Origin: Elsinoe ampelina
Taxonomy: Eukaryota
Assembly: GCA_010093995.1 (NCBI GenBank)
Contig: ML992503.1
Span: 242,984 to 280,494, forward strand
Reading direction: 5' to 3'
Length of the DNA: 37,511 nucleotides
Both the position numbers and the translations under genes were made by a program. The notes beneath the pieces were generated by a model. The model was not told the DNA's origin. It saw only the letters and a program-made list of their open reading frames with translations, and ran no database searches. How positions within the stretch are numbered: the stretch's first letter is position 1; every line of letters starts with the position of its first letter. Shown here in pieces: positions 3,261 through 29,098 of the stretch.

Positions 3261-3345
3261 ATTACTAATATTAAGGAAGAATTAAAGTATTATTATATTA
3301 TATTATTATAGTAAAGAAATTTATTACTCTACCTATACTATTTCT

Positions 3346-3908: not shown

Positions 3909-3917
3909 AGTAAAGTA

Positions 3918-4118: not shown

Positions 4119-4132
4119 GGTTATAAGCCTAG
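4119..4132 (+). promoter_or_regulatory. Primer binding site, internal (half) tRNA-iMet type
   Basis: GGTTATAAGCCTAG here and GGTTATAAGCCCGG in copy 1, directly after the LTR. This is the RIP form of GGTTATGAGCCC, as in Ty5/copia. Confidence 0.8.
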
Positions 4133-4587
4133 AGCTATAGTATAAGTATAGAATTGTATATACCGTAGTTAAGTATCTACGTTATTAAAATTAGGCCGGA
4201 TTCTATTAGTATTCTCCTCCGTTTCCTCTCTATTATCTTAATCTTAGATAGATTAGTAGAGGCAGTATAAAGCGTAAAAGACTAGTTACTTAGTACATTA
4301 AGTAGGACATATTAAGACGTCTACTATAGATTTATTTCTATAATTGTATAACAGCTGCTATTTATTAGCTATAAATAACTAAACAATAACTAAACAATAT
4401 TTGTTTTATTACTATTTTCTCTCTTAAGATTAAGTACCTATTAATCTTATTAACAATTATCTAGTTAAGACTAGTATAGAGATCTTAACACCTAGAAGAA
4501 TTAACTTAAAGGTTATTAACCTCCGGATTCCAACCTTTATTTATTTATTTATAAAGTTCTTTTCTACTCTAGAACTTATCTTTAGCT

Positions 4588-7500
4588 ATAAAAAACAATA
4601 ATACTTAATTAAGGCAGCTAGTACCTATACTATCTAAAGATAACTATAAGAAGTAGTTCTAATAAATAGAGCTCTAGCTTATATTAAAGAAGGTATTATA
4701 GACTCTTACTTCCCTTACTAAACTGTTAGTAATAACTCTAGGGTTATTATTAACTTCCTTATTTAACTCCTAGTATTCTCCTCTATTAGTAGAGGAGAAT
4801 AGTACTACCCTTTACTAGATTTATAGATATATCTCTAAGAGAGATTAAGAAATAATTTAGGAATAGTAGTAGGCTAAACTAGCTTAGGAGAAGCTAAAGA
4901 GCAAGTATATAAAGTAGATAGGTATATAGGTAAGACAACTTTAGAAAGAGTTTATAATATATACTATAGGTAATAATATAACTATCTTAGATGCCTAGTT
5001 ATACCTAACTATATTAGGAAGGAGAATTAATAAGTCTTTAAAGATTAAGTAATACTCCTTACTAATAATAAGAATTTAAAGACTACTTAGTGCTCTTCTA
5101 GCTTTATAGTTAACTATAAGAGATACCTTAGATACTTAACTCTACCTTAGTATAGATAAGATCTATAACATTCTTAAAGAAAAGAAAGCATAAAAGAGAG
5201 AAGGGGAATCTACTATACTTATAAGAGGTAAGCTATAATAGGGAACTAGTAGGAGCTTAAATTATATATATATCTTATATAAGGAACCTAGACACTCTAT
5301 GTTAAGGTGTTCTTATTTCTAATAAGCTAAGAAGTATATCTAGCTATTCTATAGAGTTACTAAAAGGAGTAGCTCTATAAGGAGATAGTTACCTAAGCGC
5401 TAGAAACTACTTAAACTTATAAGATAGCTTACTAAGAGAATAGACTTCCTTAAAGTAGCTAAATTAAGAAGGAGAGGTAAAGCCTATCTAGCTACTAAGA
5501 GTAGTTTATTATTAATATCTCTATCTCTACTACTAGAAGTTCTATCTAGGGATAAAGAGCTTAAAACTATAGGTTCTATATTAGAGGTTTAAGGTAAGCT
5601 TCTATATTATTAGTAGATACTTAACTCTAGAGTATCTAACTATATAATAGACAAGCTAACTCTCTTTAGAGGCCTATTAAGCAAGATTCGTACTTAATAG
5701 ATCTAGGTTAAAAAGAGTTACTTTTAGTTATAGTTAATAGAAACTATAGTTATTAAGACTAAGAAGAGAGATAAGATAAAGATATAGGCTCTTTATGTAC
5801 CTAATCTTAGTATTAATTTAGTCTCCTATTATAAGCTATACTCGGATTTAGGGGTTTCTAGAGTTTTTAATTTAAATTTGTTTCTTATCCTTAATTAGTA
5901 GAAGCAACTATTGCTTAAAGCTAGAATTTAAGAGGAAGTATATATTATCTAATTCCTCTTTAAGTAATTAGCTAATTAAAAGCCGCATTCTAGATCTAAG
6001 CCTAGCTTAATTCTAGATCTAGCTAATTAGGATTTAGCATTCCTTACTACCTAGCTTATAATTATATTATAGACTAAGTATGTATATCTAACCTAGGATA
6101 AGTAATAAGAGGATCTTATTAACTTAGGACCTAATAACTCTAAGATAGAGTATTAGCTCTAGTATAGGAGATTTACTTACTTTAGAATTAAGAAGCTTAG
6201 GGATCTTTATAAAGTTATAACCCTTAAGAAACCTATTAACCTAAACTATAATCTATCTATTCTATATAAGGTCTATTCCCTTACTAAGATAAGGAATAGA
6301 AAAGGTAAAACCTTATAGAAAAGACTAGAGGTTCTTTAGCTTATCTATACTAATATCTATAGCTTAATTAAAGTAAGTAGAGAAGAATTTAGATACTTTC
6401 TAGAGCTTATAGATAGCTACTTAAGAATAATATAGATTAGTCTACTTAAGATAAGAGATAAAGCTCTATAAAGGCTTATTAAGTAGAAGCTAAGAGTTAA
6501 GAAGGAAAGTAATACTAAGGTTAAAGTTACTAGATTAGATAATACTAGTAAACTTAATAAGATTCTAAAGTAGTAGGAGCGCTAAGAAGATATCTATTAT
6601 ACAACTACTAAGCTATATAATTTAATTTAGAATAGACTAGTAGAGAAAGACATCTAAACCTTAGAGAATAGTATAAGAGTAATACTTAAGGACTTAAAGA
6701 TGCTAAATAAGTTCTAGCCTAAAGTAGTTTAGGTAGATATATACCTAAGGAACAGGACAGTAACTAGACCTATAATCAATAATAAACAAGTTATACCTAT
6801 TAAGGCCTATATAGGCATTAAGCTATTAGTTAATTATATTAGAGTCTAGGGCTATAAGGTATATACCTATATAAACCTAAAGTCCCTTTCTATATATAGA
6901 AGAAAAGATAAGCTTATAGATAGAAGGAGAGTAGGAGTATTCCTTAGCTATATAGATAGAACTAATAGGATATATAAGATATAGGTATTTAATAGGAAAG
7001 TAGTAATTATATTACTAAATGTTAAATTCTCTAAGTTTAAGAAAGATAGTAATATTAATCTTAGTATTAGGATTAATACTATAAGCAATTAAGCACTAGT
7101 TAGGAGACTAGTTAGTAGACTAACTTAGATTTAGACTAAGGTTAGATCTAGGATAGACTAACTAAATTAGCCTATTTAAAATAAAGCACCTATAGGAAGA
7201 ATCTTCTTATATATTAAGATCCTAAGAGTTAACCCTATTAACATTATAGATTTCTAACATAGAGAAGAGCTAATAGTTTAATCTTTACTAACTAACTATA
7301 TAAGTTAATCACTTAAGAGATTAAGAGATAATAACTCTAATAATAAAGGCTCTAAAGCTAAGTACTATAGAGCTTTTATTACTAAGTATATTAATTAGCA
7401 AGATAAGGTTAATAAGATTACTATAATAGTCTCTATTAAGTAACATATCCTAATCCTAAGGGACTACTATAAGGCTATTACTAATCTAGTATAGGGAAGC

Positions 7501-9057
7501 AAATAGAAGAAAGTAATTAATATAGAGCTTAATACTCTACACTTAAACAATATATAGGAAGAGGTTATTTCTCTAAAGGGATCTAACTTAGTAATATCTA
7601 AATAGGTCTTTAATATTAAGTATAATATAGATAGCTCTATTAAAAAGTTTAAGGCTAGACTAGTTACTAGAGGCTTCTTATAGAAGTATAGCATTAACTA
7701 TAAAGATATATTTATACTAATAGTTAGAGTAGATACACTTAGGCTATTCTTCGCTATTGTTTATATATATAACCTTAAGTGTCACTAGGTAGATATTAAT
7801 AACACCTTTATAGAGTTCTTTCTTTATAAAAGGATTTATATAAGGCTACTACCTAGACTAAAGGTTAGTTCTAGATTTGCCTTCCGGATTCTAAGGAGCT
7901 TATATAGACTTAAGTAAGCTACTAGAGACTAGAACTAGCACTATATCTCTAAGCTCCTAAAGCTAGGCTTTACTTAGAGCGAAGTAGACTCTTATCTTCT
8001 TATATACTATAATAAGAAGATTATTCTTTTAGTTTATATTAATAATATACTATTTGTAGTATAAAGTAAAAAGAATATCTAGTAGTTTAAGTAAGAACTT
8101 AGTAAGATCTTTAAGATTAAAGATCTTAGTAAGGTCAATAAAGTTCTTAGGGTTAAGGTTATAAGGGACAGATAATAAAGCACCTTAAGACTTAATTAAA
8201 CCTACTATGTAGATAATATGCTATAGAGGCTTAATATAACCTCTAACAAGGTTACTCTAATAAAGCAGCTAATAGATAATAAACTCCCTTAAAGAGCTTA
8301 GGAAGATAATATAAGGTTTAGTAGAACTAAGTACTTATATACTATTAGAAGCTAGATATACCTTAGCACTCTAACAAGGCTAGATACTGCCTTTGCCTTA
8401 GGAAGGCTAAGTTAGTTCATAGCAGATCTAATAGATAGTTATACTATTAAGATAAAGAAGATGTTAAGATATATTAGATTAACTAAAGATCTTAGTATTA
8501 TATTTAGAAGGAATAGAAATAAGACCCTTAAGGGATACTCTAATTTAGACTATGCCTTAGACAAGTTAGATAGAGTCTCTATCCTTAGATATGTCTTTAT
8601 ACTTGTAGGTAGTTCTATTAGCTAGATAAGTAGGAAGCAGAAGTCTGTTTTAACCTCTACTATAGGGGCTAAATACATAGTAATATACTCTTATATAAAG
8701 AGATTACAGTTCCTGTCTTAGTTACTAAGAGACATAGGCTGTTATAAGATAGTTAGGCAATTACTATAGAGGCTAACTATAAAGGAATCTTAGAAAGCAA
8801 TAATAAGATTACCTTTTACTACTAGGATTAATAGTAATAACTAAGTAGCTCTTTTACTTATAAAAGAGCTATATACTTATAAAAGGGCAAAGTATATTAA
8901 TGTTGCTTACTACTACGTTAGGAGGCTATAGAGGGACTAGAGGATTTAAGTAGAGTTTATAAAGATAGTAGACATAGTAGCTAATAGGTTAACTAAGCTA
9001 TTATAAGGTTAGATCTTTATAAGGTTTATAAAGTAACTTAGCTTATTATTAACCTAA
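4588..9057 (+). pseudogene. Copia gag-pol polyprotein relic (~1490 codons)
   Basis: De-RIP motifs: CX2CX4HX4C knuckle ~5267-5310; protease WILDSGASNHM ~5614-5646; LWHRRF.H ~6157-6180; integrase core ~6340-6760; RT (KARLV.RGF.Q, LYGLKQA.R.W, LVY.DD) ~7450-8250; RNase H (GYSDSDYA, KHIDV.YH) ~8530-9050. Confidence 0.93.
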
Positions 9058-9085
9058 TAGCTTATCTATAGGAGCTAAGTAGGAG

Positions 9086-9286
9086 TATTAAGAATATAGC
9101 TCTCTCTAGATAATTAGGCTATAAAGTTATATAACCTTAAGTTATATAATGCTAAGGCCTAGAGATTTATAGCTGTTCTTTCTTCTAGTAGATAGACTTC
9201 TTAATTAATTAACTTGTCTATTACCTAACTAGTGTGCGATTAGTTCTATATAATATTCTACCCCTAAACGTGCCTTCTACTTAATA
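9086..9286 (+). repeat. 3' LTR of Copia A copy 2
   Basis: Direct repeat of 3918-4118, preceded by a purine-rich tract and followed by the TSD. Confidence 0.96.
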
Positions 9287-9623
9287 AAGTAAGAGGTTAT
9301 TTATATATAGCTAAGAAGTTAAAGTTCGTATATAAAATTTTAATATATATAAAATAGTAAAAAGAAGAGGCTAGAGTAAGAAATATAAAACCTATTATTA
9401 GATATGCTATTTACTATTAATAATAAAGAATAATAGAATAATAGTAAATAACTTATATAATAATAGCTTTCTTATTCCTTACTCTAGCTTCTCTTTTTAT
9501 TATTTTATACATTTATAAATTATAAATTTCTAACTCTAACTTTCTCTTTATACCTTTACCTCTTTTACTTACCTTATATATAATTTATATACTATAAATA
9601 CTCTTTTTATTACCTTTAATTAA

Positions 9624-9802
9624 ATATCTATACCTATAGAAGACATTAAGATAGAGTAGAAAGAGTAGGTAGTAATTAAGTAAGAAGAAGACAATAGAGA
9701 GAATGTTCTAAGAGAATTATTAGGGGTATTAATTATAGTCTCTTATTATATATAGTTACTAACAATACTAGAGATTTAATTCTAAGTAGTAGAAAATTAA
9801 AC
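9624..9802 (+). pseudogene. Truncated 5' fragment of the acidic-tail ORF3 paralogue (exon 1, intron 1, start of exon 2)
   Basis: Colinear with 20389-20567; similarity ends abruptly at the hAT TIR at 9803. Confidence 0.75.
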
Positions 9803-10190
9803 TAGAGTAGTTAGTAGATAGTAGGTATTCTACTACGGGTAGAGTAGAGTATTATTTCTTAGCATAGTAGGTATAGGTTAGGTAGAGTATTCTTAGTAGT
9901 AGGTATAGTAGGGGTTAGGTAGTAGATATTTTATATACCTAAATACTCTACCTACTATAACTTACACCTATATATAGGTAGGTATTACGTAAGTAATAGA
10001 AGCTTCTCTTAATTCTCTAATATAAGACATTATATAGAATTTAAAATTAGAAAGGACAGTAATAATTATAGTCTCTAATTATAGCATCTTATATGCTTAG
10101 TTATTATAATTATAAATAGTTCTATTCTATACCCTTATAGATAATCTTATATGCTTTACTAGAGGCTTGTTATTATTAATATTATTATTC

Positions 10191-10394
10191 TAATTACGAC
10201 TAGCAAGATAAGGGAGTTAATTATATCTATTTATTAAGATATCGAGACTTAGAAGAAGAAGAAGAAAAGCTAGTATACAAAGCACGCGTAATATCGAGGG
10301 CGGAGCAGCTAGAAGCCTAGGCCGCGATACTAAAATTACATAACTAATCTAAACTATATCCTAACTAAATCTAGTTCGTATCTATCTCGTATTA
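10191..10394 (-). repeat. 3' LTR of Gypsy B copy 1
   Basis: Direct repeat of 16376-16579; the PPT complement CTATCTTCTCTCTT is adjacent at 10395. Confidence 0.95.
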
Positions 10395-10717
10395 CTATCT
10401 TCTCTCTTAAGTGTATTTACTCTTAAATACTATTATATATTATTTATTAATCTATTTCGGCCTTAGCTTATCTATGTAAGAGTCTAGATAGTTATATAGC
10501 ACGTTAGCTACTCCTTTAAGATTGTTAATTAGCCACTAGGTAAGATTCTCTAGATAGCTCTTCTAGCTTATATAAGTAACTAGTTTACTACGTAGTATAT
10601 GTATATTAACTACGTCGTCTACCTCGTATTTCTCTTTACTATTAACTTCTATCGGAGGTAGTTCCTTAAAGACTTAGCCTAGTAGAGAGTTATTTAGATG
10701 CTTAGTAAGTAGATTAG

Positions 10718-10921
10718 TAATACGAGATAGATACGAACTAGATTTAGTTAGGATGTAGTTTAGATTAGTTACATAATCTTAGCATCGCGGCCCGGGCTTC
10801 TAGCCGCTCTGCCCTTAATATTACATGTGCTTTATATACTAGCTTTTCTTCTTCTTCTTCTAAGTCTTAATATCTTAACGAATAGACGTAATTAACCCCC
10901 TTATCTTACTAGTCGTAATTA
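10718..10921 (+). mobile_element. Solo LTR of Gypsy family B, in opposite orientation inside Gypsy B copy 1
   Basis: Complete 204-bp LTR with flanks ATTAG (10713-10717) and ATCGG (10922-10926), which differ only by transitions. The uninterrupted site is present in copy 2 near 32861-32865. Confidence 0.93.
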
Positions 10922-13900
10922 ATCGGCGTAGAATATAGAGTAGATTTATTATAGCGTAGCTAGTAGATCTAGCTTATATACTAATAGTAACTACTTCTCG
11001 AGGATCTTATATAGACTAACGTGTTTTAGTAGTAGCTTTAGATTGCTATATAGCTAGAGGTTCTTTATCGATAACTATACTAAATCGCCTACCTTAAACT
11101 CTATCGGCTAGTAGTGCTTATTAGCTTATTCTACTATACGCGATTAGGCAATAGCAAGGTTAGCTTTAGTAATAACTAGCGCTTCTTTTAGTTGTTTAGT
11201 AAGTGTATAGATGTCGACCTTATTTAGCTTAGCTCTTGTTAATAGTGCGTTAAAAGGGAGTTAGAAGCTTAGCCTTAGCTTATATCCTCTAGTAACCTTA
11301 AATAGTAATAGCTTAGTACTCTCTAATAGGTTAACGTTAGTAGAGAACTCTATAACTAGTAGAATAAGAGTCTAATTACTAAAGCGTATAGCGTATAAAT
11401 AAATAACTTACTCGAACTTACAATTTATAACTTCTAATTAGCTGTCTATCTATAGATGCCCTATAGTAGATAGTTTAGTAGTAATCTTTAGGATTTAGTA
11501 GAGCCTCTTCTATACGTCGCTAACGAACTAAGAGCTATAATCTAAGGTAATACTATCTAGTAGGCTATATAGTTTCTACACATAGAAGAATAATAGCTTA
11601 GCTATCTTAAATATAGAGGTTCCTTCTTCTCCCTAGAAGTAAGGGATTAAGTGTTGTTCCTTAGACAAGTAATTGACAATATATAGTACTACGTTATAGC
11701 TATCTACTAGAGGTAGGCTAGTAACGAAGTCTATAGTAATGTATTACTAGGGCCTAACCGGAATAGGTAATAGTAATAGAGGGCTAGCTAGTAAGCTATA
11801 GCGAGCCTTTAAGCGCTTATAGTTATAATAGTTAGCGATAAACCTCTTAACATTAGAATTACACCCGGGGATATAGAAAGTAGACTTAATTATAGTAGCC
11901 GTCTTAGTAGCTCCTCCGTGTATGTAATTCTTTAATATATAAACTTCTTAGATAACTTTTGTAGCTATAGAGAAAGGCATAATTAATCGGCTAGTAGCGT
12001 ATAGTATTCCCTTCTTAATTATAACATTAGTCGATAGTAACTATTTTCTCTTTAGGAAGGCTTCTATTATATAGTAGACACTATAAACTGTCTCGAAGTT
12101 AGAGTCTTATAAGTTAGCTTTAGCTACTTCGTCGAAAAGGAGTAAAGGCTCTTCTATAGCGGAGATAGGTACTATATAGATACCTAGCTCGCGAGCCGAA
12201 ATAGGCAGCGAAATAGGTGCTAAACTAGATCTTAGTTTAGCCTAGATTAGTAATTTAGCTCGGATACGACCTAGATTTAGTTCGTTAATAATATGCTAAT
12301 CTAGCACTTTATATAGTAATAGCGTCTAGCGTAGATTAGAGTCTTCTTTCGAACGTAGTACGTCTCTATTTCTTCTTATAAGTGTGTTAGTCTTACTATT
12401 AGCGGCGCTAGACCTATATATAATCTTAAAGTTAAACTACGTAAGGTAGAGGGCCTAGCGCACTTAGTAGCGTAATAGCTTCTAAGTCTTTATAAAATGC
12501 ATTAAGGATTAGTAGTTAGTAAGGACGTAAATAGCCTTATCGGATTAAGTACTTATAAGCTTAGAGGCCTATTCCTTAAAGGCTTAAACGATTACTAATA
12601 GCTCCTTATTATAGATTACGTAGTTATGTTCGGCTTTGCTTATAGATTTACTAAAGAAGGTAACAGGCTAGAGAACGTCGGAATTGTTATATTACAATAG
12701 AATTCTAGTAGTAGTAGTATCGGAGGCGTCGGTCTTAATAACTACTTACTTCGAGTAATTAAAGTACGCTAAGATAGAGGCACTTATAATAGTATACTTT
12801 ATGTAGTTAAACGTAGTAGTATACTTATTATTTTATAGCGTAGCGTCCTTCTTAAGTAGGTCGTTTAATAGCTTAGCGATAGTACTAAATCCCTTAATAA
12901 AGTAGTAATAGTAGCTATAGAAACTAATAAAGCTTCTTATCTAAGTAGTATTACTAGGGGCTAGTTGTTTCTAGGCTTATATAGCTTTAACCTTCTTTAG
13001 ATCTATCTTAACTCTATCTCGACTAATAATAATACTAAGATACTTTACTTCTGTTAGGTAGAACTTGCTCTTCTTAATATTAGTATTTAGGTCTAAATTG
13101 TAGAGACGTTAGAGTACTAGCTTAATATACTTAGCGTACTCTTAGCAAGTGCCGTCGGTATAGATAAGAATATTATTAAGATAGATTAACACGAAGCGCT
13201 TAAGCATGTTAACAAAGTTATAATTTATAAACCTCTACTATACTATAGAAGCGTTAGTAAGGCCGAATAGCATTACTAACTACTTAAAGTTACCTATACG
13301 TATAGAGAACATAGTAAGGTCTTTACTATCGATAGAGTTATAGAGGTAGTAGAAGGCTTAATAGATATTAATCTTACTAAACTATTTAGCTTTACTTACG
13401 CGCGTAAGTGTTTCTTTAATAAGAAGTAAAGGATAGATATCTCGCTTAGTTACCTCGTTAAGGCTATAGTAATCGATGTAAAGGCGAAGTTCGCCGCTAG
13501 ACTTATAAACAAAGAGAATAAGCAAGGAATAGCTAGCTAAGCTTAGCGTAATAAAGCCTTTATTAAGGTGCTTATAGATAAATAGCTCTACTATATTAAG
13601 CTCCTCTAGTAATAGGCAGCGAAGAGGTTTAGTACGTAGTAGTTTAGCTCTATTCTTAAGTGTAATTTAATTGTTAAAATCTAGCCGATATAGAGGAAGC
13701 ATATTAGATTACTCTTTAGAGAAGACGTTAGTAAACTTCTATAGCTCTTCTAGGAGAACTACTATAGGGTCTAGTTCTAGCTCGGAAGCTATCTAGTAGT
13801 AGTTCTCGATATTCTTTACTAAGATTATAAACACCTTATTCTTTTAGTATTTAGCTACTAATACAAAGGTAGCGGCGCTAATAAAAGCAATAGTTAGCTC

Positions 13901-16375
13901 TTCTTACTTAGTGTTACTTACGTAGGTAGGTACGTAGGAGAACTTATATATTAGCTAAGTACTATAAGAGATTAGGTTAAACTCTCTCTAATTTAGCTTA
14001 AAGTTCGACCTAAGAGCTAGTAGTCGATATAGTCTAGTTTATCCTATCTTAGCGGCTAAGCTAGAACCTAGTTCGTAAGTTAAATTAGAACTAAACTAGT
14101 TCCGAACTAGAGTAGTAGCTTTACCGAGCTAGATTTCTAGATCTAAGCTAGGCTTAGATCTAGATTCTAGTCTTTTAATTAGCTACGGTAGCTCCTACTT
14201 AATAACTGTCGGTAAAAACTCTTCTTTGTATATAACTTAGCTATGCTTATAGTCGATAGTAGCCCTATTAGCCTTAAGCTATCTAAGGCTAAGGATAATA
14301 TTAAATCGGCTAATATCTATAATACGGAAGGTAGTAAAGTTGTTTAGCTTACTAGAAATAGTAGTAGTAAGAGAGACGCTATAAGTAACTTATTCTATCG
14401 GAACACTATTATAAGTCTAAAGCTAAATAGAGCTAGCTAGTGCCACCGGACAGCTAAAACTCTTTAGCTTATTAAGAATATTATAGTTAACTATAGCGCC
14501 GATAAGCGCGCTAGTATCGATAAAGACTTAAAGTGCAATAGTACAAGAGTAGTTATAGAGGTTATAAATAGTAATAAGAGTTATAATAGCGAGGATATAG
14601 TAGCTAACGACGCTATTTAATAACTATATACCTCCGGATCTATCTCGAATTACTCTTATTCTACTAGAGAATAGAACTTGTTCTCTAGCTACTTATTTCT
14701 CTAGCTAGATAGGCTAGTAGACTTATAATCTATTTCGAGGTTAAACTAAGACTAAACTAGATCTAGTTCGTAAGCCGAACTAGTATTAACTTAGTTACTT
14801 AATTCGGCTAAGCGATCCTAGAGCTATTATATCTCTTCTACGGCACTAATACGTATAGGACGTAAAGCGGCGTAAGTAGCCTTCTCTAAGGCGCTAGCTA
14901 TATACTTAGTAGAGATATAGCTAGGCTTACTACATATATAATAGGTAAGTATTAGAGCTAGACGAAAGAGCTATAGGGCTCCTCTAGTAATAGAGCAAAA
15001 GGTAGCTAGAGTAGTAAGCGCGGAAGTAGAATAAGACACACAGATTAGTACTATAGTAACGTAGCTTATAGCTAGGCTAGAGTATAAGGCCTAAGTACGC
15101 TTAGTAATAAGGTTGCTCTATTAAATATTATAGTTAGTAGCGTAGGCCTTTATAATAAAGGTAGAGAGGTTATTAGTATTAAAGTTAATAAGAGTAACGC
15201 GTAGTTTATTAGATATCTTCTAACATAACTAGTAGAGCTATTTATCCTTAGCAATCTTAGCGCGAAGAGCGTACTTATTAAATTCGCTAATAAAGGAGTT
15301 AAAAGAGGTATTACGCTAGAAGAGGCTAGTAAACTAGGCGCGCGTAGTAGCCTTATAGTTAGGGTCTTCGAAGCGCTAAGCTAAGATACTAAGGGTAGCT
15401 TTAACGTTAAGGGTGTTATTACCGGCAAAGTCTATAATAAGAGTATATACTTCGCTAGAAAGGTGCGAGTAGAGATAGGTAAACTAGGTTACCTCGGTAG
15501 AGAAATAGTTAGTATTAGTACGTATCTTGTTCTTTATTTAGTGCTTAAAAACCTTAAACTGTTCTAGAGTGCCACTAGAGAAGATAGCGAGGTCTAGTAT
15601 CTTTTTAGACAATATAGTACCGTATATAGAGGGAGCTAGTATAGTACGTTCTATCTTAGCTCTTAGCTAGGCTAGTTTAGCCTTAAGTTTGCTAATGTCT
15701 ATAAGGTAGCGCGTAGTTTAGATAGTAAGATTATTAGTAGTACTATTAGTAGTATCTAGTTCTATTAGAGCGTTATCTAACTAGTTACGTAGGTTAAGAG
15801 TGTTAGCATATACTAAGTTATATACGGTAACCTATCCATCGTAGGTAGACTTAATAAAGGTAAAGGCCTTATATAGAGTAGTTATCCTATCTATCTCTTA
15901 TAGCCTCTTCTTAAGGTTAGTGTTACTAAGGCAGATAAGGTCGTAATAGGCTAACTAGACTAGTTCGTTATTGTTGTTAGCGGGGGGTAAAGAGATCTTA
16001 CTTACGTAGCAATTATCTTCGCTATAGTTAGAGTAAGCTATGCTCGGCGTAGTTAGTTATAAATAAAATAGTGTAAAAAGTCAACGCGTAACAAAGGAGA
16101 TATTAAAAATTTTTAGCCGGCGGCCTACTTTCTTTAAGAGTTGTCTATAACTCGACTTATTACCTTCTTCTTATATCTTCGAAGTTTGTAGTATTAACCT
16201 ATATAGTAGTAGTAAGGATCTATTATAGTGTACGTAGGAACTATAGTTATAATAGCTTCTTCTTTAATTCTTTAATTCTTCGTAAGTAATAGTTAGTAGT
16301 TATATAAGTAGTAGAATAACTAGATAATTTAATAGCTCCGTTGCTTAGTTATAGTTGTTCGAAGTCTCGATATAG

Positions 16376-16579
16376 TAATTACAACTAGCAAGACAAGGGA
16401 GTTAATTACGTCTATTCGTTAAAATATCGAGACTTAGAAGAAGAAGAAGAAAAGCTAGTATATAAAGCATATATAATATCGAGAGCGAAGTAGCTAAAAG
16501 CTTAGGCTATAATACTAAGATTACATAACTAATCTAAACTATATCCTAACTAAATCTAGTTCGTATCTATCTCGCATTA
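16376..16579 (-). repeat. 5' LTR of Gypsy B copy 1
   Basis: Matches the other four family-B LTRs. Confidence 0.95.
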
Positions 16580-19496
16580 TATTCTCCTTGTAATTGCTTA
16601 GAATAAAGTTACTCTCTTAAGAAGGTAGCTTAAGTAGGTTATCTACCTTGTCTATAGTAGTATCTTTATAACTACTATTAATAGTATCTTAATAACTACT
16701 AGTAATAATATTACTACTTAACAAAGAGAGACTTATTATAAGCTTTATAATAATAAGCTACTAGATAGTTTATATAGTAAGCTAGTGTCTTCTATTACTA
16801 ATAATATTCTTTACTATATTAAAGACATATTCGACACCTACGCTAGCTATTAGTATAGCAAGGATATTATAAGTAACTTTAGTAAGCTATAGAAACTTCT
16901 TCTTATTAGTCTTCTACTAATTAAGCAACTTAAATTTAGTCCCTAGTTAAATTCGAATAGGAGAGATACTAAGGTAATTCTTACTCTCTTAATATATAGT
17001 TTATTTCTCCTTCTCTTATTTTAGAGATATAGACTCTATACTAGATTAGAAGCTAAAGCTAGTCTACGGGGAGGTAATCTATATAGGTACTCGAGGTCGA
17101 CGGAACTAATCCTCTTTATTATTAGACAAGATTATAGCGTTAAGAGTTTTAGGTTAACTTAATAGTAATTTACTATTATAATAACTAAGGTAGTTAAGGA
17201 ACTACTCGCGATACTTCCCCTTATTAGTTTTAGCCTAGGTCTCGTCCTATATTACTATTAGCTTTACTATAATAATATATCTATAAGCTATAAACCTCGT
17301 AGGGAGTTAGCTTTTATAAAGGGTCAAGAATAGTGCTATAATTAAAGAGGTAACTTCTCTTATTATTAGTGTAAGAATAGTACTTTAATAGTTTATCTTA
17401 ACTATATTATACTACCCTTTTAACTACTATAGGCTAACGCTCCTTATTATTCTTCTTCTCGCCTATAATACTATTCTTAATTATATTAAGAAAGTCGAAT
17501 AGTTAATTATATATTATCTAGATATATAAGATCTATAGGCGGCTAATAGTACTTAGAGAGGTAGTTACTTCCTTAAAGTTCTTAAGTATTTTTATAACTA
17601 GCTTAAGGTAATTCTATTCTATACTATTAAGATAAAGATACTTAAGATTCTTATAGTCTAGATTACTAGTGTTATTACTAACTAAGTTAGATCTAGCACT
17701 AGTAGAGCCTTTTAGTATAATTTCCTACTTAAGCTATTTATTAATAAATAGCCTAAGCTCGAGACTATACTTATATATATTAAAGGTTAAGTTCTACTAC
17801 GTCTTAATATCTTAAATAATAACCTTACGCTCTCGAGGCGTTATAGTTTATTAGAGGTTAATAAACCTCTTAAACCGTTAAGGTAATTAGTTAATAGTAA
17901 TATAAGTTACACGAAGCTAGTAATTTATTAGACTATAATTAGAAATTGTAATTAGAAAGCTAATCTTCCGAAGCGAGTTTAGTACTAAGAGTTTAGTAGA
18001 GATATCTTTTAAGTGCTATCTTTTAAGCCTAGTAGCCTACTCTTCTTCCTTAGTAGTCTAAAGGTTAAGGTGCTTAATAATGTCTTATATAACTAGGTTA
18101 ATAATATATATAAGGCATAGAATAGTATTCTCTTATAAGTTCTATATAATACCTATCTATCTTAGAAGCTTATATATAGTCTTATATAACATATAATTGT
18201 TACTTACATTATCTATAGTAATTGCTAGAAGCTAGTTCTAGAGATTATACTACCGGAGTACCTATATAAGCTTAGTAGCTATATTCTGCCCTATATATTA
18301 ACTACGAAGTAGTACTATATCTAATAGTTGTTCCCGGAGATACTATTAGTTATTAATATAATAAGCTTTAATTGTAATAAAGCCTAAGTAGTTGTTAGTA
18401 GACTAGCTATTAAGTGTAATTAAAATCTTTATAGTCTTATTAAGATTCTATAATAAGCTTTTATAGAGAGTCTTAAATTTGTTAATAAAGAGTATAGCGA
18501 AATAACTACGGCTTAGTATAAGTACTCTCGGGTATAAGAACTATATAAACTATTAAAATAATAGTCGCTTAATAGTGTAGAAGGACTAATTATAGTTAAT
18601 AACTGTTTAAATAAGCTCTAATTAGAAGTAAGTAACTAAATATAATAGAACGTTTTTCTAATCGATTACTAGATAAGCTCGAAGTTATATAAGTACTCGG
18701 ACTACTAGTACTTTCTTATAGACTAGTCTTGTTACTTTCCTACAAAAATTTAACTCTCTGTATTTACTTATTACATTAGTACTATTCTTTCCTAGCGTAG
18801 AGTAGGTAAGAGCATTACTATACTATAGGTAGTAAATATATAGACGACTATCTAATACCTATATAGCTTCTCTAAAATATCTCTATACTTGTCTAGTTCT
18901 TAGTTTTAAGTTCTAGTATAGTATATAGAACTCCTTAGAGTAACTATAGCAAGATACCTAAAGTATTAAGTTCTACTATATTAAGAAGCTTTAGAGGTCT
19001 ATTTGTTCGTTAGGATATACTAAGGGATTAAGCGTTAGACACTTTAGAAGATACTATTATATAGGCTAACTACCCTTATTGCATTATTATATAGTAAAAC
19101 AATAATTAAGCAAATCTTAAGAGATAGAGATTACTATAACTAATAGAGTTAATAGAAGATATAGTTATAGATCGATTAGATCGTTAAAGTCTACTATAGT
19201 AGAGTAGAGGTTATATAGTATTATAGATAGTATAGGTGTTTATAATGTTATACTTATTTAGCTATATAATTTTAAATAATAGATTTGTTTTTAGACTATT
19301 AGAAAGTCTTCTCTACTATTACTTTACATAAGGCATTTTAAAACGCGCTAGTAGCCCCTATATAATTACAAATATTAATTATAACTAATATTTTTAATTC
19401 TAACCTTTAAAGTATATAATAAATAGAAAGGATTAAAGTATTATTATATTATATTATTATAGTAAAGAAATTTATTACTCTCTCTATACTATTTCC

Positions 19497-20049
19497 CTAG
19501 TATAAAGTACTACCTAAAGCTCTAACTCTTAATATATTACCGACCTAGAACTTCTTATAGTAGCGCTTAGCAAGGCTAGAGTCCTTAGCCTAGATAGTAA
19601 TATACTTAGTATAGATAGTATTAAGGTTTATATCTATATATAGTGTTAATAGAGAATTTAACATATATTAGATAAGTATATACCTTCTATATATCTAATA
19701 ATAAATGCCTCTACTAATTCCTAGAGAGCTCTAATTATACTAGTCTAGAAGTAAAGGTTAGACTTAAAGTTCTAAGTAATCTTATAGATAAGGCAAGAAA
19801 AGAGAAGCTTATAGAATAATAGAGTAATCTCTTTCTAGTAGCAACAAATCTCTTAGAGAGCGATAGCTAGCTTCTATTAGTTCTATACTATAATTAAAGA
19901 CTATAATAATTACTACTAGGCTTATATCTATACTTCTTTCTAGGCTTAGCTCTAGATTATAGTATCTTCTTTATAGTAGGTTACTTCCCTTTATAACCTC
20001 TTTCTCTAGGACTAGTAGTAGCTTAAGGACAATTCTTAGTACGTACTAT
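19497..20049 (-). pseudogene. Histone H3-like gene, copy 2 (exons 19914-20049, 19684-19866, 19497-19633; ~151 aa), RIP-inactivated
   Basis: De-RIP reading MARTKN...[54 protein letters not shown].EAF.....E/D.NL.AIHAKRVTIQAKD..LAKR, a clear H3 histone fold. Introns are 47 and 50 nt, GT..AG. The stop position is uncertain. Confidence 0.92.
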
Positions 20050-20109
20050 AGTAAAATAAGAGGTTATTTATGTATAGCTAAGGAGTTAAAGTTTATATAT
20101 AAAATTTTA

Positions 20110-20280
20110 ATATATGTAAAATAGTAAAAAGAGAAGGCTAGAGTAAGAAATATAAAACCTATTATTAGATATGCTATTTACTATTAATAATAAGAATAAT
20201 AGGAGAATAATAAATAACTTATATAATAATAGCTTTCTTGTTTCTTACTCTAGCTTCCCTTTTTATTATTTTATATATTT
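20110..20280. repeat. ~40-bp imperfect inverted repeat in the H3L/ORF3 divergent intergenic region (also at ~9343-9513)
   Basis: TATATGTAAAATAGTAAAAAGAGAAGGCTAGAGTAAGAAA (20111-20150) pairs with TTTCTTACTCTAGCTTCCCTTTTTATTATTTTATATA (20241-20277). Confidence 0.8.
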
Positions 20281-20388
20281 ATAAATTGTAATTTCTAACT
20301 CTAACTTTACCTTTATACCTTTATCTCTTTTACTTACCTTATATATAATTTATATACTATAAATACTCTTTTTATTATATTTAATTAA

Positions 20389-21657
20389 ATGTCTATACCT
20401 ATAGAAGATATTAAGATAAAGTAGAAAGAGTAGGTAGTAATTAAGTAAGAAGAAGACTCTAGAGAGAATATTCTAAGAGAATTATTAGGGGTATTAATTA
20501 TAGTTTCTTATTACATATAGTTACTAATAATGCTAGAGGTTTAATTCTAAGCAGTAGAAAATTAAATACTAGATCTCTTAGCGTAGTGCTAGTTAAACTA
20601 GAAAGAGCTATAAGACTAGATTTGTCGCTAGATACTCTAGACCTCTAAGTTAAAGCGCTTATGCTATTAAGTAGAGAGATTATACTTCTTAGCGTATATA
20701 TAAGGAGTAAGCTCTAGCTACTACTTATATAGTAGATTATAAAGTAGTTAGTACTTTACGTAACAAGATTAAGATAGAGAATAGATAGGACTAGCTCTCT
20801 ACTAATAAGTAGAATATTAAAATTAATAATGCTATTAATAATATAGAGGAGAAATACTTTAATAAGTAGAGAAGTAGTAAGTCTATTATTATAGTATACT
20901 ATTATAGTAGTACTAATTGTTATAGGCGAGTAGCTCGAATTTATATTTATATAGACCTATAAGAAATAGGCTAGTATTAGAAAGACTCTATAAAAGTAAG
21001 AGTATAACAAGATTATTAAGCGTATCTAAGATAATATAGTAGCAAATTAGTAAGGCGAATAATAGCTAATATAAGCCTATACGTATATCTATAGTACTAG
21101 TAGTATTATTAAGAAGCTATAGCGCTAGATTTACTAGGATAGCTATATAAGCCTTATTACTAACGATACTAACAATAAATAGACATATAAGATTTTTTTT
21201 AAGTAGCTTAAAGAGCTCTCTCCTATAGAATTAGTAGTATTATAGAATCCTAACTAGTAGTAAGTTTATTATAGTCTTTAATTATAGTATATTCTAACAA
21301 TTATATAGGCTAGTTATTTCTCTATCTCCTAAGTATAAATATATCTCCGAGCTTAAACTCTATAGTACTAGGCTATACTATAAAGGAGACAATAATAATA
21401 AGTATAAGAAGAAGGTTAAGAAGAATAAGAATAAGATTAAAAGAATATTAGATAAGGAAGCTAGTAGTAATAAGGATTATTATTTAGGTATTAAAGTTAA
21501 AGATAAGTCGGATAGTAAGGATAAGAATAATAAGATTATAAAGTACTTTAAGCTTAAGACTAATAGTAATAACAATAATAAGGATAAGAATAAGAATAAG
21601 AATATAAAGAATAAGAATACTACTAAGGTTAAGGATAAAGAGATATCTAATGCCTAG
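20389..21657 (+). pseudogene. ORF3: 4-exon gene of unknown function (~374 aa) with a long Asp/Glu-rich C-terminus, RIP-inactivated
   Basis: Intact ATG at 20389. Introns 20491-20536, 20877-20925 and 21260-21308 are all GT..CTAAY..AG, and splicing them keeps one frame to TAG at 21655-21657. In 21385-21654, GAT/AAT/AAG/GAA codons revert to D/E runs. Confidence 0.72.
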
Positions 21658-22393
21658 ATATAATAGAGATTAAAAGTATAATTCTATAAGTAGTAGTATT
21701 AGAGAATATAGTTTATAATTAGAATCTATTATTAGTAATTATACTTTGTTATTTTGTATATTACTAATAACCTATAGAGTGTAAAATTTATAACTCTACT
21801 CTAACCTACCCCTTAGCTTAGCTAACTCTAACTCTACCTACTCTCGCGAGAGTTAGCTAAGCCTAGAGGTAGGTTAGAGTAGAGGTAAGTTACCTAGAGA
21901 AAATTCTAACTCTACTCTACTCTATAACTACTCTAATTATAGATATAATTAGTTACTCTAGAATCTAGTATCTATAAGCTTAAGATGTTAGTAGTAGCTA
22001 AGATAAATACTAAGTGTAATCTAATAGTAATAGCTATATTAATTAACACTAGTAGAGTTAATTCCTTTTAATATTATACTTCTTTAGTAATAAAAGCCTT
22101 AATTCTCTCTTTAAGAGTCTTATTATTTAGCCTTTATTTAACCTCCTTTATAGTCTACTAGTTTAGTGTCTATCCTTCTAGCCTTAGATACTTATTTAAG
22201 TAATAGTACTTAATCTACTTATACCAGCCTTAGTATATATATTTAAGCTCCCTAGAGAAACTAGGTTTCTTATAAAGAATATTCTTAGTAGCTATAGAGA
22301 AGGCTATAGCTCCCTTACTAGCCTTTATAGTACTATATAGCTTATAGAGTTTATAAAACTGTCTAAACTTAGTAATTAGTTTAAGTATAGTTA

Positions 22394-22857
22394 TGTTATA
22401 AACTAGTAGGATAAGCTAGAGCGTAGAGACGTTAGAACTAATTAAACTACTAAGGTTATTACGCGACCTAGCCCGACGTTTACCCGGTTCTCTATCTTCT
22501 CTAGTAGCTCTACCCCGGAGACTATAGAGCGCATAGGTTACTAGTAGACGTATACTCTATCTTCTCTAGCGGCTCTACTATAGAGCACGTAGAGTATATA
22601 AGGTACGTAGTAAAGAACACATGTATATAGGAATAGTCCTTACCTTATATAAGTACTATAGTTAACCTTATCTAGATAGCGAACACTAGTATTACTAAGG
22701 CTAGCCTTTATAATACTATCTAATTGTACTTTATTATCTATAAGACATATCTTCTCTAACTCTTACTTTAGTACTATACTACTATAGAAGTAGAACTACC
22801 TCGTTCTTAGCTTAGCTTAGACTACTAATATAGGCTATGTTTAAACAGTTCGTGACA
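22394..22857 (+). repeat. 5' LTR of Gypsy D
   Basis: Direct repeat of 35136-35599; contains an internal 24-bp duplication and TATATAAG near 22647. Confidence 0.96.
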
Positions 22858-22973
22858 TTTTAACTACCCTTACTATAGCATAGCACGCTACAAGGTTAAT
22901 AAGTAACTCTTACTCTAAGTTACTATTAGTATCTTCGATTGCTAGTAAGCTAGGAAAGCTTACTATTAACGAC

Positions 22974-24962
22974 ATATCTACTACTAGTTTAACCTTAGGC
23001 AAACATAGAAGGTCTCTTAGTATAGGGGAAGGACGGAGTAAGCCTAAGTTAGAAGTAGAACTCTTCTATAGGGACTACGCCTACTTAAGGCACTTTCTTG
23101 TTTAACTTAAAGCCTTCTTCGCTCTAGAGAGAGACAAGTACGCTAACGATGTAGTAAAGGTCCTCTATGCCGAGATACACCTTAAAGGCGCTACCTTTAG
23201 GTAATTTAAGCCTTATATAAGTAGCTACCTAGATAGATAACTAGGCCTAGATATAAAGGCTATCTTTAAGAGCTTTAGTATCTTCTAGGCAAAGATTAAG
23301 TAAGTCTTTAACGTATCTAATAAGGAATATATTACTATAACGAAGATTTAACAACTATAACAACGTAGGTCTATAGCCTAGTACTACTCCTAGTTCTAAC
23401 AACTTATAATACACCTAGACTAGAATAATAGTGCTAAACATTTAGTATTCTACTAAGGACTAAGCGACTTAGTTAAGGACTAAATAATACCTAAGCTGCC
23501 TAATAGCCTCTAAGAACTAGTAGATACTACAATTGCTATTAATAACTAACTTTACAAACGACGTATAGAACGTCGTAGAGGATATAAGGTAAATACTAGA
23601 TATACGCGTTTCTCTCGAAACTATAGAGACTCTATAGAACTTAACGCTATATACGAAGGTTACCTCTTATAGGTATAAGGCCGAAGTTGTAGAGGAAAGT
23701 TCCTTAGTAGAAAAGAGAGAGAGAAGTATAGACGAGACAATCTATATTTTAAGTGTAAAAGACCTAGGTATTAGGCTAGGGACTACTAACAAGGGGCGCT
23801 AGCTAATAAATTACATATAATAGTTACCGGGCTAGTAGAGAAAAAGGCTAATACTACTATAGAAGACCTAACGATCTTTAGCGTAGGTAAGGAAATATAG
23901 AAGAAGTCTACGATAACTCGAGAGGTAATAGAATTCTCTCTAGATATTATACTTAATATCTCTATAACTAATAGCGAATAACAAAGCTAACACGTAACGC
24001 TATTATAGATAGTATATTATAATAACTCTTGTTATATTTACTTATTAGACAAGTAAGGATCTAGTTAGTTTCTATATAAGCTATTTAAGCGTAGGTAACT
24101 AACGAAATAGCTAGACTAGGAACCTAACCTAGAAGAGCTCTCTATAATTAGTAGTAACATTAACTAACCTTAGAAGGTAGTTAGCGACAATTACTAATAT
24201 ACAATTATTAAGACGAAGTATTAGGACGTAAGTGCTATATAACAATATAGTAGCCTTACCTTTAGCTCTTATAGTAAACTATAAGGAAAGGTATATTATA
24301 TATCGCTCTAGAAATATATAAATCTAGATTGTAAATAGTACTATACTATTTACTTATATAATATACTTAGAGAAGAGGCTATTAGTCTTAAATACACTAT
24401 AGACTTCACGGTAATTGAAATAGGTAGTACTATTTCCTATAGCTAAGTACGGGAATGTACTTAGTATAGCCTTACTAACTATAACTATACTAGGGGTAGC
24501 AGCGATAAAGAGAAATATAACGAAGAATACACTAAACGACTATAATATAACAACATAGATAAAGACTTATCTAACGACAAAGACGATAATATACTACTAC
24601 CGGGCGGACAACTTAAGGCATACCTTATAGGGATATAGAGAAACTATATAATAATATACACCTACTACTAGAATAGAATACAACAAGATAAATCTACTTA
24701 ACCTACGTTTGTCTTTAACGCTAATACCTAGCTATACCCGGAGGGGATAGTTATACTAGTATAGGTATATAATACTACTTAGTATAACTAGTAGAGAATT
24801 ATTAAACTTTATAGTTATTAAGGAACGTAAGTATTAGAAGTTTACCTTGCTATATTAAACAACGATAAAACATAACTTGCCTAATAGATATAGTACTAAT
24901 AGTAGATACGCGTAGGAAGGGATTAGCTACTTATCTAAGAAGCTATAATAATAAAAAACTAG
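22974..24962 (+). pseudogene. Gypsy D gag (ORF1, ~660 codons) with CCHC knuckle and long Cys/His-rich C-terminal extension
   Basis: De-RIP motifs: FYQGL, YGDPMELDA ~23622-23648, CFKCKRPGHQARDC ~23745-23786, H.TLSWTACYDDSC.IH.SDK.GSGWFP ~23991-24074. Ends at AAAAAAC-TAG. Confidence 0.85.
24953..24959 (+). promoter_or_regulatory. Putative -1 ribosomal frameshift heptamer A AAA AAC
   Basis: X XXY YYZ slippery site immediately before the gag stop and ~130 nt upstream of the protease DSG. Confidence 0.7.
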
Positions 24963-27745: not shown

Positions 27746-29098
27746 ATAGCTCGCTCTAACTATAGCAAAGATAATTGCTACGTAAGTAAAATCTCTCTAT
27801 CCCCTACTAATAACAATAATAAACTAGTCTAGTCGGCCTATTACAACCTTATTCGCCTTAGCGATACTAACCTTAAGAAGAGGCTATAAGAGATAGACGA
27901 GATAACTACTCTATATAAGGCCTTCGCCTTTGTTAAGTTTACCTACGACGAATAGGTTACTATACGTAACTTAGTATATACTAACGCTCTTAACCTACGT
28001 AACTAATTAGATAACGCTCTAATAGAACTAGATACTACTAATAGTACTACTAACAATCTTACTGTCTAAATAGCGCGCTACCTCGTAGACATTAGTAAAC
28101 TTAAGGCTAAACTAGCCTAGCTAAGAGCTAAGATAGAACGCGCTATACTAGCTCTCTCTATATGTAGTACTACGTTATTCGAAAAGATACTAGACCCCGC
28201 TATCTTCTCTAGTAGCACTCTAGAATAGTTCGAGGTTTTTAAGCACTAGATAAAGAATAAGATACGCGCTAATACTAACTATTTCTCTACCGAGGCAACT
28301 TAGTTTACCTATCTCTACTTATGCCTTTCTAGCGAAGCGTATACTCTTATTATAGACTCCGCTAGCGATAATACCCTCGACGTCGAAGCTGCCTTTAGTA
28401 TCTTAGCTTAGCGCTTTAAAGACCCTAACTATAAGGCTACTACGCGCGCCTAGTTCGCTAGCCTCTTCTAGCGTAACGCCTCTTTCGACTCCTTTATTAG
28501 CAAATTTAATAAGTATGCTCTTTGCGCTAAGATCGCTAAGGATAAATAGCTCTACTAGTTACATTAGAAGATATCTAATAAACTACATATCGCCCTTGTT
28601 AACTTCGATACTAATAACCTCTCTACCTTTATTATAAAGGCCTACGCTACTAACTATAATATCTAATAGAGCAACCTTATCACTAAGCGCACTTAGGCCT
28701 TACGCTCTAGCCTAGCTATAAGCCGCGCCGCTATAGTACTAATCTGTGTGTCTTATTCTACTTCCGCGCCTACCGCTCTAGCTACCTTCTACCCTATTAC
28801 TAGAGGAGCCCTATAGCTCTTTCGTCTAGCTCTAATACTTACCTATTACGCATGCGGCAAGCCTAGCTATATCTCTACTAAGTGTATAGCTAGCGCCTTA
28901 GAGAAGGCTACTTACGCTACTATATATCCTATACGTATTAGCGCTATAGAAGAGATATAATAGCTCTAGGATCGCTTAGCCAAATTAAGTAACTAAGTCG
29001 ATACTAGTTCGGCTTATAAACTGGATCTAGTTTAGCCTTAGTTCAACCCCGAAATAGATTATAAGTCCACCGACCTATCTAGCTAGAGAAACGAGTAG
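27746..29098 (+). pseudogene. Gypsy B gag (451 codons)
   Basis: CYACGKPGHIS.KC knuckle at ~28844-28885. Ends GAGAAAC-GAG-TAG (possible eroded slippery site). Same length as in copy 1 (14689-16041). Confidence 0.85.

Follow-up and report, generated by a model that had tools for sequence, protein, structure and literature searches.

Two groups of fungal hAT transposons carrying a histone H3-like gene (H3L) are closest to the element considered here. In Pyrenophora tritici-repentis, a 5.6-kb hAT element comprising a transposase, a central open reading frame (ORF) and an H3L was described, the latter represented by expressed sequence tags (ESTs) and bearing insertions in its tail, and the copies being nearly identical and expressed (Manning 2013, G3, PMC3538342). 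In six Mycosphaerellaceae, hAT-H3L families that repeat-induced point mutation (RIP) had inactivated were found, of which the P. fijiensis element is 9.5-9.9 kb long and contains one or two intron-less H3L retrocopies; no dimerization domain was found, and the article text consulted reports no other domain or feature (Dhillon 2019, Mobile DNA, PMC6710886). Both papers treat H3L as a captured gene. A more distant parallel is offered by the VANDAL transposons of Arabidopsis, whose VANC21 protein was located in non-coding regions, bound to specific motifs, and was shown to cause hypomethylation (Hosaka 2017, PMC5735166). The present analysis concerns 37,511 nt of Elsinoe ampelina contig ML992503.1 (positions 242,984-280,494, forward strand; hereafter the window, i.e. 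the whole stretch of DNA that was analysed), in which the element under study, at 9803-21935, is in all probability a single RIP-degraded, dead copy of a three-gene hAT transposon interrupted by a Gypsy retrotransposon. A first-pass annotation, made from the sequence alone, knew of no earlier description of the three parts together, a view not supported in the light of the P. tritici-repentis report of a hAT with transposase, central ORF and H3L: the three-gene hAT-H3L kind is already published, and the window copy is a member of it (Manning 2013, PMC3538342).

Once the Gypsy is removed, the hAT proper consists of 9803-10190 and 16593-21935 (388 + 5343 = 5731 bp). The parts of this copy, referred to as copy 1, are the following:

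9803-10190, plus strand: left arm of the hAT, with its terminal inverted repeat (TIR), subterminal repeats and, putatively, the last ~35 transposase codons (minus strand)
10191-16592, minus strand: nested Ty3/Gypsy retrotransposon with long terminal repeats (LTRs), not part of the hAT, assigned from its LTRs, Pfam domains and pol homologues; boundaries to within ~5 bp
16593-19257, minus strand: RIP-degraded hAT transposase gene, assigned from the dimerization domain, homologues and tblastn
19542-20049, minus strand: H3L, 135 codons, assigned from a splice model, H3 matches and tblastn; three modelled exons (20049-19917, 19866-19684 and 19633-19542) and two modelled introns (19916-19867, motif pair present; 19683-19634, without motif)
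20050-20388, no strand: divergent intergenic region of 339 bp, between the H3L start (20049) and the ORF3 start (20389)
20389-21657, plus strand: ORF3, 374 codons, assigned from a splice-signal model, periodicity and RIP-aware alignment; four exons modelled from splice signals (20389-20490, 20537-20876, 20926-21259 and 21309-21657)
21658-21935, minus strand: right arm of the hAT, with subterminal repeats and a TIR at 21925-21935

Both ends carry a perfect 11-bp TIR, TAGAGTAGTTA, at 9803-9813 (plus strand) and 21925-21935 (minus strand), which fits the hAT rule of short TIRs starting with YARNG; taken alone, this 11-mer is no rarity in this DNA (21 matches with up to one mismatch versus 17 expected). 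Similar subterminal repeats of the GGTTAGGTAG type lie inside both TIRs, the usual subterminal repeat word of the family being GGGTTGGG, RIPed to GGTTAGG. The hAT ends bound the span that had first been taken for one element, but over half of it is the nested Gypsy, which had been missed. This 6.4-kb insertion has LTRs at about 10191-10405 and 16376-16592, Pfam matches on the minus strand at 10.9-12.8 kb (RT_RNaseH_2, E = 5.5e-18; RT_RNaseH, E = 4.6e-12; Integrase_H2C2, E = 5.2e-4; in the Pfam scans of window reads stop codons were entered as X) and a best pol homologue at E = 1.3e-83. A second Gypsy copy, at 27191-33387, is 90.3% identical to the nested one and 99.9% identical in purine/pyrimidine letters. 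A contig from run X1, one of several public runs labelled as coded organisms, joins 10186 directly to 16584, so that Gypsy-free copies of the family exist. The Gypsy inside the hAT also contains an extra, inverted LTR copy of ~207 bp (10715-10921) between its 5' LTR region and its body, which is missing from the copy at 27191-33387 and is skipped by several X1 contigs, from 10717/10719 to 10929-10952.

The whole window is AT-rich (GC 0.25-0.40 per kb) and holds just four stop-to-stop frames of at least 80 codons. The hAT part has a GC of 0.265 and extreme RIP indices (TpA/ApT 1.77; (CpA+TpG)/(ApC+GpT) 0.17), the differences between repeat copies within the window are nearly all transitions, and the transposase, H3L and ORF3 of the element are all dead, destroyed by RIP. 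The family is high-copy: at an identity of at least 80%, 12375, 20709, 11064 and 1121 contigs of four public runs, labelled as three coded organisms, match the stretch (hAT and Gypsy parts counted together), and transitions dominate their differences from it. Read depth in the runs of organism B falls beyond 21882. In run X6, from organism C, the changes relative to the window number 356 for A>G and 319 for T>C against 192 for G>A and 161 for C>T, and over 16759-21455 the relative depth is greater on the hAT than on the Gypsy; this skew towards G/C, together with the higher hAT depth, hints that less RIPed relatives of the hAT may be present there.

The transposase of the window copy has its start codon, at 19257, mutated to ATA and contains two introns, A (17917-17964) and B (about 17247-17295). 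The hAT dimerization domain PF05699 was recognized at about 16743-16976 on the minus strand (E = 3.1e-7; 30.5 bits against a cut-off of 21.4), and the read of the catalytic core matched the proteins P0022 (619 aa, E = 5.9e-79, 36% identity) and P0023 (E = 3.1e-71). Intact transposase homologues aligned by tblastn to 18912-17293 (E = 9e-77) and 17246-16620 (E = 4e-15), and a word-based protein search with the C-terminal read as the query gave no match.

A single scan of metagenome contigs with P0022 as the query returned two relatives, L002 and L001. The first, of 5902 bp, opens and closes with an inverted repeat of its own, TAGGCTGGCAAAAA, has a GC of 0.44, displays no RIP signal and is a complete, un-mutated element; its ends agree with the window TIR at nine of the first 11 bases when RIP transitions are allowed (counted by eye). 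Its transposase, on the plus strand at 2930-5537, contains Dimer_Tnp_hAT (E = 5.5e-20) and a weak Zn_ribbon_12 match (E = 0.013). The alignment of the window transposase ends at 16620, 46 residues before the end of the L002 protein, and the transposases of the two lineages are ~35% identical (the window side being read from a RIPed copy), while the intact L002 and P0022 transposases share 47% identity. The second relative, L001 (5943 bp), contains the transposase only, with no upstream DNA; downstream of it, the ORF list shows an open frame (3006-4253) that by eye resembles a pogo/Tc1-type transposase.

The H3L of L002, on the minus strand, is open, with three exons encoding 143 aa, matches Histone (E = 6.6e-14) and H3.3 (E = 3.8e-15), and carries a three-residue insertion in loop 1. 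In the window copy the H3L start codon is mutated to ATA, and the N-terminal and fold reads lie in different frames, 50 nt apart. The fold read matched solved H3 chains over H3 residues 45-118 (best E = 4.2e-8; 152 distinct sequences at E <= 0.01), and a Pfam Histone match was obtained at about 19694-19867 on the minus strand (E = 1.2e-4; 22.7 bits, below the cut-off of 26.4). The L002 H3L finds copy 1 by tblastn (E = 5.5e-6) and also in a RIP-aware Smith-Waterman alignment, in which each codon of the window is allowed to represent any codon from which RIP could have produced it (score 372 versus 163 +/- 11 for the control), and both introns of the window gene stand at the L002 intron positions. 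The purine/pyrimidine mismatch between the two genes at codon positions 1, 2 and 3 is 0.24, 0.18 and 0.29 (0.40, 0.33 and 0.44 in the shuffle null). The fold reads clearly as H3-derived. A canonical H3 tail, with K9 and K27 in A-R-K-S contexts, was found in neither gene: the N-terminal read of the window copy gave no match at E <= 10, and residues 17-49 of the L002 protein align to H3 9-44 at E = 0.005 (phmmer). In that alignment L stands opposite the canonical K9, the next residue being a K, and apart from a change of S28 to Q the K27 context is retained; an A-K-S lies upstream, within an inserted stretch. The earlier description of H3L as K9-less is fair for the canonical K9 context of the intact tail and is not supported beyond it, given the adjacent K, the upstream A-K-S and the retained K27 context.

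As had been noted at first, H3L and ORF3 stand head to head, with starts 339 bp apart (20049 and 20389), and the DNA between them is a putative divergent promoter of roughly symmetric build. It contains a 59-nt inverted repeat with arms at 20127-20185 and 20206-20264; the repeat occurs in both copies of this region in the window (20127-20264 and 9360-9498), the arms being 59-60 nt long, 80-83% complementary and 19-20 nt apart.

In L002, the central ORF, on the plus strand, is open and encodes 349 aa in four exons with intron phases 0, 1 and 2; the protein has 78 D/E against 45 K/R residues, with 32 D/E in the last 70 aa. Acidic tails are typical of histone-binding proteins. The ORF3 of the window has introns of 46, 49 and 49 nt in the same phases, each containing the motif described below, and exons of 102, 340 and 334 nt that compare with 111, 346 and 331 nt in L002. 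Purine periodicity, which RIP cannot alter, favours the model frame (R1-R3 +0.145, z 3.45) over the other two (-0.03 and -0.11); frames chosen by stop density pointed to wrong frames and were dropped. RIP-aware alignment of ORF3 with the central ORF of L002 gave a score of 567, compared with 340 +/- 16 in 60 shuffles (maximum 376), 354 for the reversed sequence and 270-414 for nine other stretches of the window; 54 of 270 aligned pairs are identical, 118 of 270 are identical or RIP-compatible, and the window stops stand opposite W or Q. Within the K/N-rich tail at 21382-21654, 34 of 49 AAN codons are in a TpA context, as is expected if they had once been GAN, and this stretch would therefore be a RIPed acidic tail. 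The purine/pyrimidine mismatch at codon positions 1, 2 and 3 is 0.29, 0.29 and 0.42 (shuffle null 0.38, 0.33 and 0.43, standard deviation 0.03), with silent positions saturated and positions 1 and 2 better kept between the window and L002, a pattern that would be a modest sign of purifying selection and is not a dN/dS. No Pfam match to the window ORF3 was obtained at E <= 5. The possibility that ORF3 is a captured H4, which would make the two genes an H3-H4 divergent pair, was considered and rejected, as phmmer returned four ArfB chains at E about 0.6 for exon 2 and none for exon 3. In an AlphaFold2 model of exon 3 of the L002 protein (mean predicted local distance difference test, pLDDT, of 61.8), residues 55-105 are helical with a pLDDT of 80-90. 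As far as these searches reach, ORF3 is an orphan, without a recognized family.

The gene content first ascribed to the element, i.e. a hAT with TIRs, a transposase (minus strand), a spliced H3L (minus strand) and a four-exon, acidic-tailed ORF3 (plus strand), is thus borne out by the TIRs, PF05699, the H3 matches and the RIP-aware alignment. The three genes, their head-to-head pair and the repeated cis motif had also been proposed to be heritable, and indeed L002 keeps all three genes open, with the same intron phases, the acidic tail and the motif. The co-conservation of H3L and ORF3 in related hATs, whose absence the first-pass annotation would have counted as one refutation, held in the one complete relative, the upstream part being absent from L001. 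The order in L002 is H3L (leftward), ORF3 (rightward) and transposase (rightward), which fits the central-ORF arrangement implied for the Pyrenophora element (PMC3538342), whereas the window, viewed on the transposase strand, reads ORF3 (leftward), H3L (rightward) and transposase (rightward).

Comparison with P. tritici-repentis rests on the published description of that element, not on its sequence, for both the window copy and L002. The elements are alike in size (~5.6 kb against 5.73 kb in the window and 5902 bp in L002), in their TIRs, dimerization domain and three ORFs, including an H3L and an ORF of unknown function, and in the divergent H3L tail with insertions and the presence of introns, which in P. 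tritici-repentis are seen in EST alignments according to a figure legend (PMC3538342). They differ in that the window copy has been killed by RIP and has its H3L/ORF3 pair inverted, leaving H3L in the central place. GACTAT, the recombination word of that paper, is absent from L002, and its main text, supplements aside, names neither an intronic motif nor a function for the central ORF (PMC3538342). With the Mycosphaerellaceae families the window element shares a hAT containing an H3-like sequence, hundreds of copies, all RIP-inactivated, in AT-rich repeat blocks, a CpA-to-TpA bias and short TIRs starting with TAG/CAG, the rule of the family being an 8-bp target-site duplication (PMC6710886). 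On the other hand, the window copy is not an intron-less-H3L element of 9.5-9.9 kb: it measures 5.73 kb, has one H3L with two introns, a dimerization domain that could be found and a conserved third gene (PMC6710886). It fits the Manning type by size, gene set and introns, and the Dhillon cases by fate.

In living relatives, the element would move by cut-and-paste through its own hAT transposase and would carry a divergent pair composed of an H3 variant with a divergent N-terminal tail and an acidic ORF3 of about 350-375 aa, the latter presumably being the central ORF of the Pyrenophora element; in the window, RIP has destroyed all the genes of a copy lying within a nest of retrotransposons, beside two sister-copy fragments. 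The two lineages represented by the window and L002, between which synonymous positions are saturated, have in common the gene pair, the positions and phases of its introns, and a paired ATCACAG word. This co-conservation suggests a service to the element, and H3L, ORF3 and the motif are probably kept by selection because they provide it. That the service is exerted on chromatin, with H3L entering nucleosomes and the acidic ORF3 helping, is a tentative and rather doubtful extension of this proposal.

Several results weigh against this account. At the level of the element, no 8-bp target-site duplication was found, the flanks AATTAAAC and ATTATAGA being different, although for a copy in a rearranged nest this does not exclude a hAT; the DNA to the right of 21935 is not a continuation of the neighbouring copy 2 (described below), so that at least one further rearrangement must be assumed; and relative to the transposase the H3L/ORF3 pair is inverted with respect to L002, so that H3L is central in the window and the homologue of the L002 central ORF, although present, does not lie between H3L and transposase. 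For ORF3, the 34 in-frame stops in 374 codons equal the background, and plain tblastn with the L002 central ORF gave no match at E <= 1, for which reason the RIP-aware alignment was used; the homology to L002 would accordingly rest on that scoring and its controls. The codon-position test is biased by a protein-guided alignment and was controlled by codon shuffling only, and position 2 of ORF3 is just 1.3 standard deviations under the null. The intact L002 protein gave no Pfam match above the cut-off (best CCDC47, E = 0.005, 16.4 bits versus 27.7), no relative of solved structure and no usable Atlas match (best score 0.87), and a Foldseek search with its exon 3 model returned nothing below E = 5. 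The co-conservation of H3L and ORF3 counts one of one complete relative found, it is on conservation that the functional proposal would rest, and RIP silenced and killed the family regardless.

The repeated cis motif first reported for this element, as ATTACAG dyads, proved to be real, but its true word is ATCACAG and it is mostly intronic. Exact ATTACAG occurs three times in the window, with 3.67 expected, and not at all in the element; the actual window unit is ATTATAG, RIPed from ATCACAG. The window 20-mer ATTATAGTCTCTAATTATAG has six matches with up to three mismatches, against 0.27 expected, all six inside hAT copies, whereas a strict RIP-degenerate regular expression for the motif pairs, which proved too strict, matched once against 0.29 expected. 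In L002 the un-mutated motif, TTATCACAG, forms direct pairs of a 7-9 nt word 13 bp apart, and TATCAC occurs 23 times, compared with 3.4 +/- 1.9 in shuffles. The reverse complement of the motif holds what we take to be a GATA core. In both elements the unit is present in six of the seven coding introns (H3L intron 1, ORF3 introns 1 to 3 and transposase introns A and B) and absent from H3L intron 2; it immediately follows the 5' splice site and reads in the gene's sense orientation. Two transposase introns of L001 carry it as well, and in L002 it is also found just upstream of the start codons of ORF3 and the transposase. Stand-alone modules were located as follows:

Window 10054-10084, plus strand: inward-pointing module, 251 bp in from the left end, in which a donor-like GTAATA precedes two ATTATAG spaced 13 bp apart
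L002 257-284 and 5517-5545 (the latter on the minus strand): modules of 27-28 nt, GTRNGT plus two units, 257 and 357 bp inside the left and right ends, pointing inward

The window copy showed no module of this kind inside its right end. As silent sites are saturated and yet the units are kept in orthologous introns, the pattern argues that the motif itself may be under selection; its candidate readers are a CxxC...H...H finger of the transposase, ORF3, a host factor and the splicing machinery.

A serious alternative to recognition by ORF3, though somewhat less probable than its opposite, is that the motif pairs are putative sites of the N-terminal zinc finger of the transposase, or a signal for splicing or intron identity. 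The inward modules, 251-357 bp from the ends, and the CxxC...H...H stretch near residues 100-135 of the L002 transposase would suit the former, as would a 2026 preprint reporting that sequence-specific activation of cognate copies by transposases can occur, while the position of the intronic units, which follow a GTAAGT donor and finish in CAG, would suit the latter. Recognition by the transposase is less easily reconciled with the usual subterminal repeat of the family, which is a different word, and the modules at stop codons may be kept for the protein C-terminus (RY-DN) rather than for the DNA. In L002 (5517-5545) and in L001 (2610-2635) a motif pair, read in reverse complement, makes up the last transposase codons, which end in RY-DN, so that conservation there may concern either the transposase end or the DNA word.

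A passive transduplication, in which H3L and ORF3 would be captured host passengers useless to the element, is the framing suggested by the two earlier hAT-H3L papers, both of which call H3L captured (PMC3538342, PMC6710886), and it agrees with the H3-derived fold and with the fact that every window copy is a pseudogene. It is nevertheless unlikely, since both genes are open in L002, their intron positions and phases have been kept despite saturated synonymous sites, conservation is higher at codon positions 1 and 2 than at position 3, and Pfam, solved-structure and Atlas searches detected no host family for ORF3.

More improbable still is the interpretation favoured by the first-pass annotation, according to which an H3L devoid of the canonical K9 context would, together with ORF3, acting as a chaperone or targeting factor, and with the motif pairs, constitute an element-specific anti-silencing system resembling VANC. 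The co-conservation of pair and motif would be compatible with it, as would the L at the canonical K9 of the intact tail and an acidic tail that fits histone binding. The parallel extends to the presence, in a DNA transposon, of an accessory gene and of a short motif recurring over the non-coding parts of the element, as for VANC21 (PMC5735166). However, VANDAL is a Mutator-like element of Arabidopsis and the present one a hAT; binding and hypomethylation were demonstrated for VANC, where here there are genes and a motif; and the accessories are a histone variant and an acidic orphan, with a motif that is mostly intronic and matched to the gene strand (PMC5735166). Moreover, the intact tail keeps a K one residue on, the upstream A-K-S and the K27 context, the window tail has no significant match to H3, a Pfam scan of the L002 protein revealed no recognizable DNA-binding domain in ORF3, and the family is RIP-inactivated. 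The sense-strand motif that follows the 5' splice site in six of seven coding introns would fit a signal in RNA no less than a site in DNA. Dyads are present in almost all introns, in the leaders and within both ends, without exception in the sense orientation for the gene or for read-in transcripts, and a self-marking module could be imagined in which they mark the DNA or transcripts of the element and ORF3 brings an H3 variant without the K9 context, blunting silencing by H3K9 methylation; we hold this to be similarly improbable. Literature searches on the motif and on transposon-encoded H3 with anti-silencing gave nothing relevant among the matches listed, and neither the intronic dyads nor a role for the pair is described in the text of PMC3538342 or PMC6710886, whose supplements may hold such a description. 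Overall, the original observations are partly confirmed and the interpretation built on them is partly supported.

It is equally hard to credit that the motif-bearing introns arose as paralogues, through the spread of a single short intron inside the element, the motif reflecting common descent, in the manner of the introner-like elements that Collemare reportedly described from Dothideomycetes in 2015 and that likewise have near-identical stretches common to introns of different genes: an identical 20-mer plus four further bases does recur in two window introns, H3L intron 1 and ORF3 intron 3, and a common core can be aligned across seven segments from the window and eight from L002, but this core is only ~20 nt long within a single transposon, the introns are otherwise unlike outside the two units and, at 45-51 nt, shorter than introner-like elements, the same units occur outside introns, and common descent alone would not secure their persistence in introns that are orthologous between lineages whose silent sites are saturated.

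The element lies in the following surroundings:

3100-3260, plus strand: right end of a third hAT copy, its last 17 bases the same as the right end of copy 1; adjoins copy 2
3266-3917, minus strand: hAT copy 2, part a (H3L and 3' flank), matching 19417-20058
3918-9286, no strand: Ty1/Copia insertion splitting copy 2 (RVT_2, E = 1.6e-25), with a 5-bp duplication, AAGTA
9287-9802, plus strand: hAT copy 2, part b (intergenic region plus the initial 180 bp of ORF3), matching about 20054-20567

As a whole, copy 2 corresponds to 19417-20567 of copy 1, and its part b stops precisely at the left TIR of copy 1; its H3L is matched by that of L002 at 3723-3397 (tblastn, E = 4.5e-9). The second H3L/ORF3 arrangement that had been noticed here is thus present as a partial copy, split by the Copia, but it is not free of RIP divergence as claimed, since its differences from copy 1 are mostly transitions: the identities of the two parts, 92.7% and 84.4%, rise to 98.7% and 92.9% in purine/pyrimidine letters. 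The simplest reading would be that copy 2 was struck by two sister hATs and one Copia. The LTRs of this Copia are 98% identical (100% in purine/pyrimidine letters), and an inverted, truncated second Copia copy at 1-3036 runs off the start of the window. To the right of the hAT, the 447 bp at 21936-22382 are a repeat that is abundant in X1 (summed depth 55294) and rare in X3 and X4 (1290 and 157). A third LTR retrotransposon follows at 22383-35599, with 475-bp LTRs (22383-22857 and 35125-35599), RVT_1 (E = 1e-16) and an SH3_Tf2-1 domain at 33389-34400, and is interrupted by the Gypsy copy at 27191-33387.

Why a cut-and-paste transposon carries an H3 gene has been a question since 2013, and both papers on such elements treat H3L as a captured passenger (PMC3538342, PMC6710886). 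The window by itself would be one more dead copy; the gain comes from its comparison with the intact L002, which shows the H3 variant to be accompanied by one particular acidic protein, the two genes forming a divergent pair. This pair survived a long divergence, even an inversion inside the element, together with a specific 7-9 nt word that has been retained, as pairs, in almost every intron and close to the ends. Whether H3L is a passenger or a tool of the transposon thereby becomes a testable matter, through the binding of the pair, the reader of the dyads and the effect on H3K9me3.

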